Source of the DNA: Candidatus Saccharimonadia bacterium | GTDB taxonomy: Bacteria; Patescibacteriota; Saccharimonadia; UBA4664; JBBRNT01 | Assembly (NCBI GenBank): GCA_038230095.1 | Contig: JBBRNT010000004.1 | Location: forward strand, 20,448 to 84,447 | Direction: 5' to 3' | DNA length: 64,000 nt | In this document: positions 2,708-12,392 of the stretch, piece after piece | Numbering within the stretch: the first letter of the stretch is position 1 | Layout of the letters: every line of letters starts with the position of its first letter | Program-made: the position numbers and the translations under genes | The notes under the pieces: model-generated | Database searches by the model: none | Seen by the model: the letters and a program-made list of their open reading frames with translations, nothing else | Told to the model about the DNA's origin: nothing

Positions 2708-3196
2708 ATGCCAAAAACCACCAAGTCCACATCCAAAACAACCACCGTCAACAAGCTCAGCGTAGCCGGTCTACAGAAAATGTCCGATCGTAAGAAAACC
2801 GCTCTTATCGCCCTCATTGTCGGAGTCATCGGCGTCAGCAGCTTCTTCGGCTACTCCGCGTACCAGGATAGCCAGCTCAAGGCTCTTGCAGCCACCTACA
2901 CCCCCATGGGCTCATCACGCGGCGTAACTGCCGTTGCCTGCAAGAAGGTTTTTAGTGGTGGTGTCACCGTCGTCCAGATTATTGCCTGGGGCACACCCCC
3001 AGCAGGCTACAACTATCTCGGATCGTTCTCGGGCGGGCCGCTGCGCCTTAGCAGTGGGCCAATTTCATCACAAGGCACCTCAATCCAGTTTGTCCCCTCC
3101 ATCCAGTATATTAGCTGGGTCCTGACTCGGCCGGGGCTAGGCTACAGCTATGATGGTGGTGGCCTCCAGCTAGGGAGTATTAAAACCTGCGGCTAG
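2708..3196 (+). CDS. hypothetical membrane-anchored protein (N-terminal TM, Gly/Ser-rich exodomain)
   Basis: 162-aa ORF. Lys/Thr-rich N-terminus, one TM (LIALIVGVIGVSSFFGY). No known motif. Confidence 0.45.
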   Translation: MPKTTKSTSKTTTVNKLSVAGLQKMSDRKKTALIALIVGVIGVSSFFGYSAYQDSQLKALAATYTPMGSSRGVTAVACKKVFSGGVTVVQIIAWGTPPAGYNYLGSFSGGPLRLSSGPISSQGTSIQFVPSIQYISWVLTRPGLGYSYDGGGLQLGSIKTCG

Positions 3197-3232
3197 TCGT
3201 CCCAGACGTGCCCAGCGCGTATAATAGCTCTC

Positions 3233-4144
3233 ATGCAGCGTTTGTGGAGCTCAACCAAATCTGAAAATGTCCATTGGCGCCAGCTACTAGCCACCTCCCG
3301 GCCCCTGGCCTGGCTTAAGACAGCTGGGCCCTTCCTGGCCGGCGGCTGGCTGGCCTACGGCCACCCCACCCCCCAGCTGCTCATTGGCTTTACCTACTTT
3401 CTGTTTCCCTACAATCTAGCGCTCTACGGCGCTAGCGACGCCTACGACTTTACCGCCGATGCCCACCACTCGCGCAAGGCCGGCGCAGAGTCCATACTGC
3501 CCACCGCCAAGCGCCACCAGCTGTGGTTCTGGATTGCGGTAGTTAATCTACCATTCCTGGTTTATCTTTTTCTAAGTGGCACGCTCGGTAGCCGGCTCTG
3601 GCTGCTTTTCAGCCTGGGCATGGTTGCGCTCTACGGCCTGCAGGGTATTCGCCTGAATGAGATCCCATTCATAGACTCTATTGTCTCTAGCATCCACTTC
3701 TGGAGCCCGCTGGTCTATGGCACGCTGCTCGGCGGGGGATCCGTCACCTATCGGCCGGCCCTGGCCGCCTTCATCCTCTGGGCCATGGCCACCCAGTCCT
3801 TTGGCGCTATCCAGGATCTAGCCTATGACCGTGCCGCCGGGGTAGCATCCATTGCTACCGCCCTCCGCGAGCGAGGCACGGTCTACTTTGGGGCTATCTG
3901 TTACGCTCTGGCCGCTGGATTGGTCATACTAGGTTTTGGCCTGCCAGGCCTTGTTGTAGGCATAGCGCTACTAGGCTACGTTATAAATGTCTTGGTTGCA
4001 GGCTTCTCAGCGGGCCCACCCAGCCTACGCTACCGCCGGGGCTGGCAAGTCCTGCAGCGGCTCAATCTACTCGTCGGGCTTATCATCATCATCGGCTTGC
4101 TTGTTATCCTGAACCCGTTCGGCCACGAACTGCTGCTGCACTAG
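3233..4144 (+). CDS. UbiA-family prenyltransferase-like polytopic membrane protein
   Basis: 303 aa, roughly 8 TM. Asp-rich motifs SDAYDFTAD (DxxDxxxD) and QDLAYD (DxxxD) are spaced as in UbiA/MenA-type prenyltransferases. Confidence 0.5.
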   Translation: MQRLWSSTKSENVHWRQLLATSRPLAWLKTAGPFLAGGWLAYGHPTPQLLIGFTYFLFPYNLALYGASDAYDFTADAHHSRKAGAESILPTAKRHQLWFWIAVVNLPFLVYLFLSGTLGSRLWLLFSLGMVALYGLQGIRLNEIPFIDSIVSSIHFWSPLVYGTLLGGGSVTYRPALAAFILWAMATQSFGAIQDLAYDRAAGVASIATALRERGTVYFGAICYALAAGLVILGFGLPGLVVGIALLGYVINVLVAGFSAGPPSLRYRRGWQVLQRLNLLVGLIIIIGLLVILNPFGHELLLH

Positions 4145-8223: not shown

Positions 8224-9905
8224 AGCGCCTGCTTGCAGCCATTAGTTTTGCTCTTATTCTTGTCTCACCGGCCGTAGCTGCCGGCGAAGAGAGTATTCTC
8301 CGCTTTCACGACCAGGTATCCATCAGCCAGAACGGCGACACGGCCGTCACTGAGACCATTCTCTACAATTTCGGCACCACCACCCACCACGGCATTACCC
8401 GGTCTATCCCCACGCGTTACCAAGATAGCAATGGTAACAAGTACTATACCGACTTCACCCTAGTGAGCGTTACAGACGATAGCTTCGTCGCCATCCCGGC
8501 CACCCAGAGCCAGCAGGGCGACGGAGTAGAACTGAAGATAGGCGATACCCACACCACCGTTACCGGCCAGCACACCTACATTGTTACCTACAAGCTGTCC
8601 TCTATTATCCGTCCCGGCAATGGCATAGACCGGTTCGCCTTTAATGTCACGGGTAATAGCACCCTGGTTTCCACCGCTGAAGCCAGCGCCACGGTCACAC
8701 TGGATGGCCTCACGGTGGTGCCCTCGGCTACTCGTTGCTTTACTGGCATTGCAGGCTCTACCAGCTCCAATTGTACCGCCGGGCTCGACGGCAAGTTCGT
8801 CACCAATGCCTCCCTCAATGCCGCCGAGGGTCTGTCGATAGAGCTTGATTATCCCAAGGGTACCTTCAGCCAGTACGTTCACACTGGTGCACCGCCCACT
8901 CCCGCCTGGCAGCTCTGGCTCATCTACGCCGTCGGCGCCTACATTGTGTTTCTCACCCTGCTTCTGCTTTGGCCACTTGTGGGTGTCTACCGGACGCATC
9001 GCGAGAAGAAGGCGCAAACGGTAGTGGCACAGTACGAGGCGCCGGATGGTCTGAAGCCCGGTGAGCTTGGGATGGTAGCCGACAGCACCGTGAGCATGAG
9101 CGAGATTACCGCTACGCTACTAGACCTAGCGGTGCGTGGCTATATGAAGATAACCCAGCTCAAGGCCAAGTCACTGTTTGGGGCGGCTGAATACCGTTTT
9201 GACAAGCTGCGGGAGGGTACTGACCTGGCAGATTATGAAGCTCAGTTATTTAATACTATCTTTGTCGCTACGCCATCAGTGGAGTTGAAGAATCTAGATC
9301 GCACCGCCCTGTCCGTAGCTGTTACCGCCGTCAAAAAACAAATTCAGGCCCGCCTTGAGTCACTCGGCTACTTCCAGCAGCAGCCGATTAACTGGGTGTA
9401 TATGATTATGCTTATACTGCTCGCCCTACCGCTTTTGTTCGTTGCACCCCCCGTCGCCATTATAATTATTGTCCTCGCTTTTACCCTGGCTTCAATCGCC
9501 CGCATCTCCGACACTGGTATTGCCGAGTGGGCCAAGGTTCAGGGCTTTAAGCTATTTCTGACAGTTACGGAAGCTGATCGTCTGAAGTCTAGCGATGCGC
9601 CCAACAAAACCCCTGAGCTTTTTAATAAGCTACTACCGGCCGCCGTTGCGCTTGGCGTAGAAAAGGAGTGGGCCTCGCAGTTCGGCAATATGGATCTAGG
9701 CCAATCCACCAGCGGGTGGTACACCGGTGCCAATGGCAGCAGCTTTACCCCGGTGCTCTTCGCCTCCAGTCTATCGAGCGATTTCGGCAGCGCCGTGTCC
9801 AGTGGTTTTGCACCCGTCTCATCTGGTCGTGGCGGCGTCGGGGGCGGTGGCGGCGGAGGCTTCTCCGGGGGCGGTTTTGGCGGCGGCGGTACCGGTAGCT
9901 GGTAG
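8193..9905 (+). CDS. DUF2207-like membrane protein with Gly-rich C-terminal tail
   Basis: Signal peptide, large exodomain, TM, cytoplasmic region, two more TM, and a terminal GRGGVGGGGGGGFSGGGFGGGGTGSW tail characteristic of DUF2207/YciQ-like proteins. Start may be GTG 8220 overlapping the ftsB stop. Confidence 0.5.
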   Translation: MVELPSRPLVKRLLAAISFALILVSPAVAAGEESILRFHDQVSISQNGDTAVTETILYNFGTTTHHGITRSIPTRYQDSNGNKYYTDFTLVSVTDDSFVAIPATQSQQGDGVELKIGDTHTTVTGQHTYIVTYKLSSIIRPGNGIDRFAFNVTGNSTLVSTAEASATVTLDGLTVVPSATRCFTGIAGSTSSNCTAGLDGKFVTNASLNAAEGLSIELDYPKGTFSQYVHTGAPPTPAWQLWLIYAVGAYIVFLTLLLLWPLVGVYRTHREKKAQTVVAQYEAPDGLKPGELGMVADSTVSMSEITATLLDLAVRGYMKITQLKAKSLFGAAEYRFDKLREGTDLADYEAQLFNTIFVATPSVELKNLDRTALSVAVTAVKKQIQARLESLGYFQQQPINWVYMIMLILLALPLLFVAPPVAIIIIVLAFTLASIARISDTGIAEWAKVQGFKLFLTVTEADRLKSSDAPNKTPELFNKLLPAAVALGVEKEWASQFGNMDLGQSTSGWYTGANGSSFTPVLFASSLSSDFGSAVSSGFAPVSSGRGGVGGGGGGGFSGGGFGGGGTGSW

Positions 9906-9957
9906 TTGCGTAGGCCCCGAAGACGGTTCACAAATAAGGCTTAATTGGCGTCCCAGA

Positions 9958-9986
9958 TTGACCACAGGGCCAAAAACTGTTATATT
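9958..9986 (+). promoter_or_regulatory. sigma70-like promoter TTGACC-N17-TATATT driving tRNA-fMet
   Basis: -35 at 9958-9963, -10 at 9981-9986, 11 nt before the mature tRNA 5-prime end. Confidence 0.5.
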
Positions 9987-9997
9987 GGTTAACGCGA

Positions 9998-10074
<77 letters not shown>

Positions 10075-10113
10075 AGAAAAGTGGCTCACCATGAGGTGGG
10101 CCTTTTTTCTTGG
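10075..10113 (+). terminator. rho-independent terminator
   Basis: AAGAAAAG-TGGCTCACC-ATGA-GGTGGGCC-TTTTTTCTTGG. Confidence 0.7.
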
Positions 10114-10170
10114 CTAGATCCAGGTAGGATGCAGAACCGTAGGGAGCTGGTCGCATGCAACAAGACCACC

Positions 10171-10189
10171 AATCCTACCCCCGCTACCA
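10171..10189 (+). repeat. exact 19-nt direct repeat of the tRNA-fMet 3-prime end (AATCCTACCCCCGCTACCA), att-like scar
   Basis: Identical to 10056-10074, about 96 bp downstream of the intact tRNA. A shorter third copy AAATCCTACC lies at 10266-10275. Confidence 0.6.
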
Positions 10190-10353
10190 AAGCAATCTAG
10201 AAATCCAGCCGTACAAGCTGGTTTTTTTCGTACTGTGGACTGGCCAAGGCCACTAAAATACGCTAAAATCCTACCGTTACTGCTTATCACAGTATTTCTT
10301 GAACAGATATGCGAGCCAAACCACGCCGAAAGCTGGTTGGCGAGCTACGACGA

Positions 10354-10428
10354 GGCTGTGTAGCTCAGGGGTAGAGCAGAAGACTCATAAGCTTTTGGTC
10401 GTAGGTTCAATTCCTACCACAGCCACCA
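10354..10428 (+). tRNA. elongator tRNA-Met (CAT)
   Basis: GGCTGTGTAGCTCAGG...anticodon loop CTCATAA...CACAGCC-A-CCA. The 5-prime half resembles elongator metT (GGCTACGTAGCTCAG). Confidence 0.8.
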
Positions 10429-10465
10429 AGAAAAGAACCCGAAGCAATTCGGGTTCTTTTCTTGG
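10429..10465 (+). terminator. rho-independent terminator (GCAA tetraloop)
   Basis: AAAAGAACCCGAA-GCAA-TTCGGGTTCTTTTCTTGG. Same CCAAGAAAAG...CTTTTCTTGG frame as the tRNA-fMet terminator. Confidence 0.7.
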
Positions 10466-10579
10466 TGGTACTTGCGCTGTGAGCCTCCACCTGGCGTTTC
10501 TTAAGGTTACCCATCCTGATTATAAATTGCTCATGCTTAGCAATACTCTAATAAACCACCTCATAATTGTTCGATAAGT

Positions 10580-11158
10580 TAGCGTGTTGTCCAAAGCGGC
10601 TGCAAAATTATAGCTGTATCATAGTCATCACGTTCATGGAAACGTAAGCCCCCACGCACGTGAAACGAATGCAGTCTTCGGGCCGCAAAACGACACAGTG
10701 GTGGTCGTAAGTCTGCCACTGGCAGGGGAATAAGCGACCAGCTGACAGTGGCGCAAGCCAGGGCCAGCGAGGGTAAGTACCTTTCACAGTGTGACTCCTC
10801 CGGGTTGACGAAGGCAATACTGGGCGACGCAAGTCGCAACGTAGAGCCAGCGGACAGATCCGAAGCCAGTAGCAACTAGCGCGCAAGCGTCGGACGCCTC
10901 AGGTGAGAAGAAATGCTGTTAAAGAGCAGGAAATAACCGCCTTCGTAAGAAGGTTCTGATGCGGCCCTCGGGCTGCTAGGATACAGGGAAAAGCCTGTAA
11001 GCGCTCCTAGGGGCAACTGAAGTCGGGCGTCTCACAAGGACGACAGTCGTCAGCGGCAACAAAGATCGAAGTGCTTAGCTGGTAGAGTACCAACAATACC
11101 GGCCTACCGTTTTCTGAACTAGGGTCCCCGCGCAAGCGGGGACCCTACATCATTTTAT
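10580..11158 (+). ncRNA. candidate large structured RNA (unclassified), ORF-free with multiple GNRA hairpins and own terminator
   Basis: No ORF over 100 aa on either strand across roughly 600 bp. Plus-sense hairpins with GNRA loops: GGCGAC-GCAA-GTCGC, GCGC-GCAA-GCG, CCTTC-GTAA-GAAGG. Terminator AGGGTCCCCGC-GCAA-GCGGGGACCCT + ACATCATTTT at 11121-11158. RNase P and tmRNA consensus motifs not found. Confidence 0.3.
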
Positions 11159-11316
11159 CCACCATTTTTGCTATTGCATTACGCTTACGCTATTAACATA
11201 ATGAAGCTATGAAATGGATACAAACACCAAAGCTTGCTACCAGCAATTTGGCCTGTCTGCACCCAGCTCCGTCTCTAGTCACCACCCGGTGACTTTTTTG
11301 ATATTGAGAGGATACC

Positions 11317-11742
11317 ATGGCTCGTCGTCTGACCGATAAGGAAGTTGACGCAGCCCGCGCCGACCCCAGCTTTTGCCCTCGCCCTACCCGGGACTGGAAG
11401 TTCTCCCCCGCCGAATCCGAGGATTTTGTAGCTAGCATCCTGACCCAGCTCGGCATTGCCTACGAGCGAGAAGACTTGTTCTTCCCCACGCAGCGTGAGC
11501 AGCGACCACAGCTAGTCGAGCTGGGGTTCACTCCGGACTTTCGTTTACCGGACTATGAAGGCTGGTACATAGAGGTTACGACCCGAAAAGATCTCCAAGA
11601 AAAGAATGTGAAGGTTCACAACGCGCAGGCGATCTATGGCATTCGTATCTTACTGATCACGCGCCGGGAGCTTACACTTCTGTCCACCGATCCAGTAGCA
11701 CTCCTGTCGCTCCTACAGCTGCCTGTACCTGTGGCGGCTTAG
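11317..11742 (+). CDS. hypothetical protein
   Basis: 141-aa ORF with RBS GAGAGGA 6 nt upstream of the ATG. No recognisable motif. Confidence 0.45.
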   Translation: MARRLTDKEVDAARADPSFCPRPTRDWKFSPAESEDFVASILTQLGIAYEREDLFFPTQREQRPQLVELGFTPDFRLPDYEGWYIEVTTRKDLQEKNVKVHNAQAIYGIRILLITRRELTLLSTDPVALLSLLQLPVPVAA

Positions 11743-11770
11743 CCCCTCTTCCAAGTGAAGGGGGGTTTTC

Positions 11771-12313
11771 TTGCCTCCAATCATGCTCGCGTGGTACTCT
11801 ACTCCTCACGTTGCCGCATTGGGCGGCACGATTAGTATCGTCGAAAGGACGAGCTACATGACAAGTAGTGCTACAGAATTGGTGCTCGATGTGGGGCAAG
11901 ATATCCCGGGGGCTTTGGCCATGGCCATGGAGCTAGAGCGTCTCTACGGCAGGGGAGCCATTGAGCAGCTAGTGGGCCTTGGTCTAGTGGGACCACTGCT
12001 AGACGACTACGCGGGCCAGCTCTTCCGCTGCCCGCTGGAGGTCATGAAGGGGGTTCGAGACGGCAGCGCGGCGCAGTGGGTCATCTCTCACTACCAGACC
12101 GTCATCCGCGAGCATCACCAAGAAGCCACACTCATGACATCGCTATCCCAGCGTGAGTGGAGCATTGCCGAGGTCACGCGGCTTCTGGCCGACTTCACCG
12201 TCTGCCACCAGCAGGAGGGCACCGCACTCTGGATGGAGCTACGTCCGCCAGCAGCGCTCCACCCCAGCCGGGGCACCCACCCGCCGCACGCGTCCGAACT
12301 CCTGACGGCCTAG
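11771..12313 (+). CDS. hypothetical protein (more likely starts at ATG 11858 with RBS GAAAGGA)
   Basis: ORF 11771..12313. An internal ATG at 11858 has a much better Shine-Dalgarno. Followed by a strong terminator. Confidence 0.4.
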   Translation: MPPIMLAWYSTPHVAALGGTISIVERTSYMTSSATELVLDVGQDIPGALAMAMELERLYGRGAIEQLVGLGLVGPLLDDYAGQLFRCPLEVMKGVRDGSAAQWVISHYQTVIREHHQEATLMTSLSQREWSIAEVTRLLADFTVCHQQEGTALWMELRPPAALHPSRGTHPPHASELLTA

Positions 12314-12320
12314 CCGTCCT

Positions 12321-12357
12321 GCCCCGCTAGCACTCTGGTGCTAGCGGGGTTCTGCTT
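12321..12357 (+). terminator. rho-independent terminator (12-bp perfect stem)
   Basis: CCCCGCTAGCAC-TCTG-GTGCTAGCGGGG-TTCTGCTT. Confidence 0.6.
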
Positions 12358-12392
12358 ACCCGGCGTCAGCCAGTTTCTGCTACCATACAGCC

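Follow-up and report, generated by a model that had tools for sequence, protein, structure and literature searches.

Within a 64,000-nt stretch of contig JBBRNT010000004.1 from a Candidatus Saccharimonadia bacterium (the 64-kb window, whose positions serve as coordinates throughout), the interval 10560-11160 is poor in open reading frames (ORFs) and lies between a transfer RNA (tRNA) unit, tRNA(CAU) at 10354-10468, and a 141-aa ORF at 11317-11742. Very probably, this stretch encodes a new large, structured RNA, about 600 nt long, without a match among catalogued families. On balance, we favour its being a stand-alone RNA of about 0.6 kb from an undescribed family, genetically coupled to a nuclease-fold gene, the 141-aa ORF, as a conserved module. 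Very few bacterial non-coding RNAs exceed about 400 nt and have complex conserved folds, and those that are understood are ribozymes, the cores of ribonucleoproteins and, recently, RNA-only cages. Here, strong selection acts on the RNA in a Saccharibacterium with a reduced genome and little non-coding DNA, and the constant, uncharacterised protein partner of the RNA and a conserved, probably regulatory leader provide a direct experimental handle. Should the coupling be real, it would define a new class of RNA-protein module, together with a new T7-endonuclease-I-like family that has another residue in place of the canonical catalytic lysine.

Non-coding character, selection and fold

The original prediction had proposed a large structured non-coding RNA of open class with its own terminator, and the analysis upholds this: the region is non-coding, its core is under purifying selection, its substitutions follow a structure-preserving pattern, and it is enriched in tetraloop hairpins. 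As first stated, no ORF exceeds 100 aa on either strand; the longest measure 98 and 92 aa, both on the minus strand, and both are broken by a 1-nt indel at 10659 relative to L002, a 1.7-kb ENA contig that was retrieved via the neighbouring protein and is the one close homologue aligned (comparison loci carry L-numbers). When stop-to-stop frames of at least 90 aa are considered, a single uncovered gap in the window reaches 350 nt or more, at 10899-11307. Substitutions relative to L002 are flat across the three codon phases of the RNA (15/15/11), and its plus strand is purine-rich, with T making up 15.5-17.7% of the region. The six-frame open stretches of at least 35 aa were joined into one query, meant to reveal a pseudogene and also to catch spurious ORFs called on homologous RNAs; it matched none of 5.8 billion proteins. 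The pseudogenised protein gene with hits across the region, which had been named beforehand as one way for the prediction to fail, did not appear in any frame.

Conservation in relatives had likewise been set as a check, and in the one close relative, L002, the RNA core is 89% identical, its 3′ half 93% and its terminator 95%. The promoter-like block at 10527-10554 is about 90% identical, compared with 41% for the spacer that separates it from the tRNA and 65% for the RNA 5′ leader downstream. The neighbouring 141-aa ORF is 78% identical at the DNA level, with 14/11/68 substitutions by codon position, such that 68 of its 142 third positions (48%) have changed; the RNA core has diverged at about a quarter of the pace of synonymous sites and is under purifying selection. 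We placed the 51 observed substitutions on the minimum free energy (MFE) structure of the window sequence alone, where 20 of them fall at paired positions (null 29.7 ± 3.0, P = 0.0012) and break 9 pairs (null 18.2 ± 2.6, P = 0.0006). Double compensatory changes occur at 10871/10914 (A-U to G-C) and 10890/10894 (U-A to C-G). This structure-preserving pattern, drawn between two sequences, is suggestive rather than proof.

The RNA is framed by predicted transcription signals of its own (Table 1). In the promoter-like block, the motif GCTTA lies 9 nt from the putative -10 box, which is also its spacing in the nuclease-gene promoter; a strict consensus scan missed the block because its -10 box ends in A. 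The CATAAT element that the original prediction had placed near 10563 is present, at 10562-10567, but rather than being a -10 box, it more likely lies at the transcription start. At the other end, the strong terminator with a GCAA loop and T-tract was found as described, with a 12-bp GCAA-capped stem at 11120-11147.

All three GNRA-capped stems first read from the sequence are present, namely GCGAC-GCAA-GTCGC (loop at 10829), GCGC-GCAA-GCGT (10883) and GCCTTC-GTAA-GAAGGT (10945), joined by further capped hairpins such as TGGC-GCAA-GCCA (10753) and GCGGCC-CTCG-GGCTGC (10967). The plus strand of 10632-11158 holds six stems of at least 4 bp capped by GNRA or YNCG loops versus 0.45 ± 0.67 in dinucleotide shuffles, a count reached in 0 of 2000 shuffles, while the minus strand holds none. 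Across the 64-kb window, the tile with the RNA is the richest in such stems, the tile mean being 0.47. Folding relative to shuffles gives z = -4.35 on the plus strand and -2.87 on the minus strand, and -4.0 for the core alone.

The consensus fold was computed with RNAalifold on the window and L002, and the pair probabilities listed with its elements in Table 1 come from it (means for P1 and P2). The long-range helix P2 is unchanged between the two sequences and hence offers no covariation evidence. In the element at 10703-10739, the hairpin loop changes from ACU to UCC in L002 and the stems are kept, while the 4-bp helix flanking the arm at 10813-10848 is rebuilt in L002 after seven substitutions, with a 1-nt register shift. 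The helix at 10864-10920 has a low thermodynamic probability (0.2-0.3) and is proposed from its substitutions, which in the outer helix convert A-U to G-C, U-G to U-A and G-U to G-C, and in the inner hairpin U-A to C-G. The best-conserved part is the multi-stem domain at 10924-11006 (93% identical in L002), whose three hairpins are GCCUUC-GUAA-GAAGGU, GCGGCC-CUCG-GGCUGC and CAGG-GAAAAG-CCUG. The 3′ hairpins at 11017-11103 differ by four substitutions, with the 13-nt loop ACAAAGAUCGAAG unchanged. A search for helices of 5 bp or more that would join conserved, unpaired segments of the two alignable sequences found none, and the window RNA has no internal repeats.

Two further features of the fold were observed. 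A conserved pyrimidine stretch, ACUCCUC at 10794-10800, is predicted to be unpaired and resembles an anti-Shine-Dalgarno sequence; it could alternatively pair with GAGGG at 10769-10773, replacing a predicted GGGU/ACCU hairpin. The tetraloop hairpins at 10671-10687 and 10960-10976 are mutually 76% complementary (inverted repeat I9), which would allow an alternative long-range or intermolecular duplex, although the L002 substitutions are slightly more in keeping with the local hairpins.

Recurrence upstream of one protein family

We examined the contigs of relatives of the partner protein, where eight lineages have enough upstream sequence, the window and L002 being counted as two. An ORF-poor, purine-rich RNA with its own terminator lies upstream on the same strand in seven of the eight (window, L002, L209/L213, L206, L208, L212 and L214). 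The order of the module is a large RNA, its terminator, a promoter with the spacer motif GCTTAYG, a leader of about 90 nt, a second terminator and the nuclease-fold gene. In L209, a Saccharibacteria metagenome-assembled genome, the locus reads DivIC, tRNA-Met, tRNA(CAU), RNA region, promoter/leader/terminator, nuclease-like gene, TilS and FtsH, where the RNA region spans about 530 nt, contains only a dubious 82-aa ORF and has a terminator at its end. A matching arrangement is found in five further loci (L213, L206/L207, L208 and L212 in part, and L214). The genomic contexts differ, with the module lying between tRNA-Met and TilS in the window and L209, near Pyr_redox in L206 (in L206/L207 it is among the downstream neighbours on the opposite strand) and near cytochrome oxidase genes in L214, which for that reason is probably not an organism of the candidate phyla radiation. 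In essence, genes of one protein family are preceded, in genomic contexts that have nothing to do with each other, by a conserved, structured element that does not code for protein.

The RNA cores of these loci span 330-490 nt, and their domains differ between lineages. The five complete cores tested share a composition of A 0.26-0.28, G 0.30-0.31 and U 0.16-0.20, fold with z from -3.5 to -6.0, and carry 2-6 tetraloop hairpins versus about 0.3-0.5 expected. Each of the L209, L213, L206 and L214 cores is closed by a helix in its own MFE structure. The ends of this closing helix, (G)UUCAG...CUGAA(C), are kept in five of the six complete RNAs and partially in L214, while the inner pairs differ (GGAAACG/CGUUUUC in the window, GAAGGAG/CUCCUUC in L209, GGGGGAG/CUCCUCUC in L206). 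Between L209 and L213, the helix comprises 18 pairs with four double compensatory changes, and its stability was matched by 0 of 60 shuffles. An RRAUAAC junction motif stands beside a tetraloop hairpin in every complete RNA, and a covariance model built from the window GGAAAUAACC domain at 10924-11006 (model R1) matches weakly inside the L208 RNA (22.5 bits, E ~0.001), with a covarying closing helix. MAFFT alignments across the lineages are unreliable, and we claim no family-wide consensus structure. Because the RNAs share no sequence similarity across lineages, the case for their homology rests on synteny, architecture, the ends of P1 and the one weak model match; that they form one family is likely but not proven.

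Two of these loci show repetition of their own. In L208, the promoter, leader and nuclease gene occur twice in tandem, and positions 1-330 of this locus carry a duplicated domain made up of AAAUAACC, a GNRA hairpin and AACGGAAAAA, each copy then followed by AAAAGUCAAAGU. At positions 100-260 of L212 there are three CAAAGAC-UUCG-GUC hairpin units. In L214, a second stretch of about 400 nt at 2870-3280, in which no gene is called and which has a terminator of its own, lies directly upstream of the large RNA; it has no Rfam match at gathering scores.

The partner is one of the two genes that the original prediction had listed as orphan hypotheticals, a label that stands for the other and fails for this one. 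The 141-aa protein matches PHROG 9019, annotated 'Holliday junction resolvase' (E 5e-7), and the profile of its family matches the T7 endonuclease I structures 3cae, 2pfj and 1m0d (E 1.4e-5 to 3e-4). Residues P73, D74 and E86 are invariant in the family, and the Glu of a YE motif, the PD and the E align with catalytic positions of T7 endonuclease I. Thr88 aligns with the catalytic Lys67 of that enzyme, at a position where at least 90% of family members carry Thr (alignment A8), while K96 and K99 are conserved 8 and 11 residues past it. The protein has no Pfam family and no PADLOC match, and its AlphaFold model is of low confidence (pLDDT 47), too low for a fold search. An exhaustive profile search recovered 45 relatives among 1.84 billion representative proteins, and a protein-profile scan of IMG/VR recovered none; because of the latter, the description 'phage-derived island' finds no support apart from the distant PHROG match.

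The promoter of the nuclease gene is conserved in the window, L002 and L003, and is recognisable in L206, L208 (two copies), L209, L212, L213, L214 and L215, with CGCTTAYGCT as its spacer motif; L205 is also among the loci with the promoter/leader element. The leader usually opens with (C/U)AUGAGGUG, and its terminator is followed by UUUUGAYA before the ribosome-binding site. A compensatory U-A to C-G change is found in the leader terminator stem of L003, and promoter and leader of about 90 nt are kept in every lineage with the nuclease gene that we examined. The leader is probably a cis-regulatory attenuator, and looks like an independent regulatory RNA. Since RNA and nuclease gene each have a promoter or promoter-like block, both with GCTTA 9 nt from the -10 box, each would be transcribed on its own, and one regulator may serve both.

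The locus and rival readings

TilS homologues place the window in Saccharimonadia (Patescibacteria/CPR), within a lineage of which few genomes have been sampled. The original prediction had counted three tRNAs upstream of the RNA; ARAGORN finds two, both tRNA-Met(CAU), and the third is a tRNA-like remnant at 10113-10229. The end of the remnant (10171-10190) duplicates exactly the final 20 nt of tRNA-Met 9998-10074 and is followed by a terminator of its own (10205-10221) with a T-tract; the remnant could have been left by an old integration or duplication at the tRNA. In L043, another Saccharimonadia genome, the order is DUF2207, DivIC, tRNA-Met, tRNA(CAU), TilS and FtsH, where the homologue of tRNA 10354-10428 lies at 9902-9976, 13 nt upstream of TilS; from this position, it is probably not a methionine tRNA but tRNA-Ile2, on which TilS acts. 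Because this tRNA adjoins TilS, window positions 10429-12392, holding the RNA and the two ORFs, are extra relative to L043. L017 has unrelated genes at the corresponding site, including a 141-aa ORF that was considered as a homologue and rejected as unrelated. Neither att-like repeats nor transposon ends or other flanking repeats were seen around the RNA island, no prophage genes were identified around it, and no reverse transcriptase lies near it, the neighbouring ORFs (141 and 180 aa) being without reverse transcriptase domains. The second orphan ORF had no match in family searches and is missing from L209, where TilS directly follows the nuclease gene. Between this ORF and TilS in the window lies a perfect 12-bp hairpin, CCCCGCTAGCAC / GTGCTAGCGGGG (12322-12349), with no T-tract.

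Table 1. Positions of the RNA, its structural elements, its partner gene and neighbouring features in the 64-kb window
Feature	Positions	Strand	Details
Predicted primary transcript	10561-11158	+	~600 nt; 5′ end placed from the promoter, 3′ end from the terminator
RNA core	10632-11119	+	488 nt; closed by P1
Promoter-like block of RNA (putative)	10527-10532, 10549-10554	+	TTGCTC, 16 nt holding GCTTA, TAATAA
P1, 5′ strand	10632-10644	+	GUUCA-U-GGAAACG; pairs with 11108-11119, probability 0.97
P1, 3′ strand	11108-11119	+	CGUUUUCUGAAC; 12-bp closing helix, directly before the terminator
P2, long-range helix	10648-10652 with 11010-11014	+	GCCCC/GGGGC; probability 0.93
Helix around hairpin	10703-10739	+	GGUCGU/GCGACC around UCUGCC-ACU-GGCAGG, internal loop GGAAUAA; probability 0.99
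Hairpin	10749-10760	+	UGGC-GCAA-GCCA; probability 1.00
Arm	10813-10848	+	ends in CGAC-GCAA-GUCG
Helix with inner hairpin	10864-10920	+	AGCCAGUA/UGCUGUU; inner hairpin GCGU-CGG-ACGC at 10887-10897; proposed from substitutions
Multi-stem domain	10924-11006	+	GAGC/GCUC closing helix, GGAAAUAACC junction, three hairpins
Three 3′ hairpins	11017-11103	+	include GGCA-[13-nt loop ACAAAGAUCGAAG]-UGCU and GCUGGUA...UACCGGC
Intrinsic terminator of RNA	11120-11158	+	12-bp stem 11120-11147, GCAA loop, interrupted U-tract CATCATTTTA
Nuclease-gene promoter	11174-11202	+	TTGCAT, 17 nt holding CGCTTACGCT, CATAAT
Leader	11209-11300	+	~90 nt; ends in terminator hairpin 11277-11294 and U-tract, directly before the ribosome-binding site
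T7-endonuclease-I-like gene	11317-11742	+	141 aa; PD-(D/E)XK fold; PHROG and profile matches
tRNA-Met(CAU)	9998-10074		ARAGORN
tRNA(CAU)	10354-10428	+	ARAGORN; with own terminator, unit to 10468
Second orphan ORF	11771-12313	+	180 aa, or 151 aa as called in L001; outside the conserved module

From the recurring arrangement we infer that the RNA acts in trans and functions together with the nuclease-fold protein. It could bind the protein and hold it in check in the manner of an antitoxin, or it could instead scaffold or target the protein as a ribonucleoprotein, and the two terminators in series would keep protein expression low. Antitoxin-like inhibition would fit the order of RNA, terminator and small nuclease gene together with the double terminator gate. 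Tentatively, then, this may be a new RNA-protein system, in which a folded RNA of 0.4-0.6 kb inhibits, scaffolds or targets a DNA-branch or nucleic-acid nuclease, and which has moved as a module between phyla (Saccharibacteria and at least one cytochrome-oxidase-encoding organism).

A number of observations weigh against a coupled RNA family. L002 is the sole close homologue that aligns with the window RNA, nhmmer detects no sequence similarity between the RNAs across lineages, and the RNA is not present at the syntenic L043 site. No RNA homologue was found in TilS-anchored loci of other Saccharibacteria, drawn from species-representative genomes (80 searched by nhmmer, 70 by model R1). On energy alone, P1 of the window is no better than with a shuffled 3′ strand (P = 0.28), and the closing helix is unexceptional in L002, L206 and L214 as well. 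As for the coupling, the single RNA of L208 is accompanied by two tandem copies of the protein, and L215 has promoter, leader and nuclease gene with a LigD_N gene upstream instead of the large RNA. This divergent neighbour (L215 1-402, minus strand) encodes a LigD 3′-phosphoesterase domain (E 2e-38), and may hint at a DNA-repair context.

The known families that the original prediction had floated (ROOL/GOLLD, group II intron, RNase P, transfer-messenger RNA (tmRNA)) found no support. With Rfam 15 at gathering scores, the window yields tRNAs only, and at E ≤ 10 the 951 nt of 10400-11350 yield terminator-like noise only, with no match to ROOL, GOLLD, HEARO, OLE, raiA, RNase P, tmRNA, signal recognition particle (SRP) RNA, 6S RNA or introns. 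The RNA regions of seven related loci had no match at gathering scores either, ROOL included. In agreement with what was first reported, ARAGORN finds no tmRNA in the window, and neither strand of the RNase P P4 consensus (GAGGAAAGUCCGGGC; ACAGAANNCGGCUUA) occurs in 10560-11160, even with up to 3 mismatches. Pattern scans for the RNA in metagenome contigs gave 0 matches and then, with a looser pattern, 120 chance matches, none confirmed by nhmmer; RNA-pattern scans of IMG/VR gave a single chance match, and blastn against GenBank phages and plasmids found nothing similar. As far as our limited searches reach, no description of the RNA is found in Rfam 15 or the literature.

It is unlikely that the RNA is an independent one of ROOL/GOLLD type, tRNA-adjacent and associated with mobile elements, which acts alone (for example in an RNA-only assembly) and has the nuclease-like gene as a frequent neighbour. 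Its size of about 580-600 nt resembles that of ROOL, two tRNA-Met genes adjoin it, the site is variable (nothing in L043, other genes in L017), and in L215 the protein occurs without the RNA. However, neither covariance model matches at E ≤ 10, nothing similar is found in IMG/VR or in GenBank phages and plasmids, and the gene order recurs in three unrelated contexts. The tRNA adjacency that had been offered as a hint to the class is not a trait of the family, as the L206 and L214 RNAs have no tRNA nearby.

Similarly improbable is a very long cis-acting 5′ leader, akin to a riboswitch or attenuator, that controls the nuclease operon by terminator read-through. The RNA does lie immediately upstream on the same strand, in a constant RNA-then-gene order, and the interrupted U-tract of its terminator could be leaky. 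Yet in every lineage two conserved elements intervene, a promoter (TTGCAT-17-CATAAT) and a distinct leader that carries a terminator. L215 and the first L208 gene copy keep both of these with no large RNA, and the closure of a 490-nt core by a helix of its own is typical of discrete RNAs.

For a non-functional remnant, whether left by the decay of a gene or intron or a GC-rich spacer arisen by chance, one could cite the narrow distribution, the empty syntenic site in L043 and the adjacent tRNA-like remnant, which shows a rearranged locus; the slow divergence of the core relative to synonymous sites, the pair-preserving substitutions, and the lack of any protein match in six frames or of any intron model match make this very improbable. 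A highly divergent housekeeping RNA of a deep Saccharimonadia lineage (RNase P RNA, tmRNA, SRP RNA or 6S RNA) is hardly credible, for although the RNA is large, tRNA-adjacent and GNRA-rich and the lineage branches deeply (the closest TilS in species-representative genomes is about 40% identical), the Rfam, ARAGORN and P4 searches were negative, the related RNAs vary from 330 to 490 nt with differing domains, and the RNA, being missing from the L043 locus and undetected in the TilS-anchored loci, is accessory and rare, a distribution that argues against a housekeeping role.

Comparison with known systems

The stand-alone, nuclease-coupled RNA favoured here has likenesses to several known systems; because the defining features tested were not found in it, it is not a member of the type III toxin-antitoxin, HEARO, ROOL or GOLLD classes. 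ROOL and GOLLD (RF03087, RF01998) resemble it as large (about 0.6 kb), ornate, multi-junction, stand-alone bacterial RNAs of unknown function, and the window RNA likewise lies beside tRNA genes at a variable genome site. Unlike the window RNA, ROOL and GOLLD are not known to have a constant protein-gene partner. ROOL averages 581 nt, and both ROOL and GOLLD often occur near tRNAs and in prophages (PMC5737381). In size and tRNA adjacency the window RNA fits ROOL, while the related RNAs are shorter (330-390 nt) and have no nearby tRNA in L206 and L214; neither covariance model matched, nothing similar is present in phage collections, and the tRNA adjacency is not kept.

The HEARO/IscB and TnpB omega-RNAs are comparable in that a large structured RNA lies beside a nuclease gene and the two travel together. 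They differ from the present case in that there is no Rfam HEARO match, the partner is a 141-aa protein without RuvC or HNH, and the RNA lies upstream with its own terminator, with no transposon ends or flanking repeats seen. The partner itself is set apart from T7 endonuclease I by an extra N-terminal segment (RRLT..E..AAR.DP.F.PRP) and by its active site, where T7 endonuclease I has the lysine of an E-x-K motif and the partner family has Thr, with conserved lysines 8 and 11 residues later.

From type III toxin-antitoxin systems (ToxI/ToxN), the module is distinguished by its RNA, a single large fold without internal repeats in place of an antitoxin of short processed repeats; by its partner, which has a T7-endonuclease-I-like PD-(D/E)XK fold and is not ToxN, AbiQ or CptN (PADLOC gives no match); and by the second promoter, leader and terminator between RNA and gene. 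Nevertheless, the order of RNA gene, intrinsic terminator and small nuclease gene on one strand is the same, since as in ToxIN the RNA lies upstream and a terminator (11120-11158) stands between it and the gene start at 11317. Protein expression in both would be gated by terminators, and tandem units, which recall the repeats of ToxI, are found in some relatives of the window RNA (the L212 hairpins and the L208 domain).

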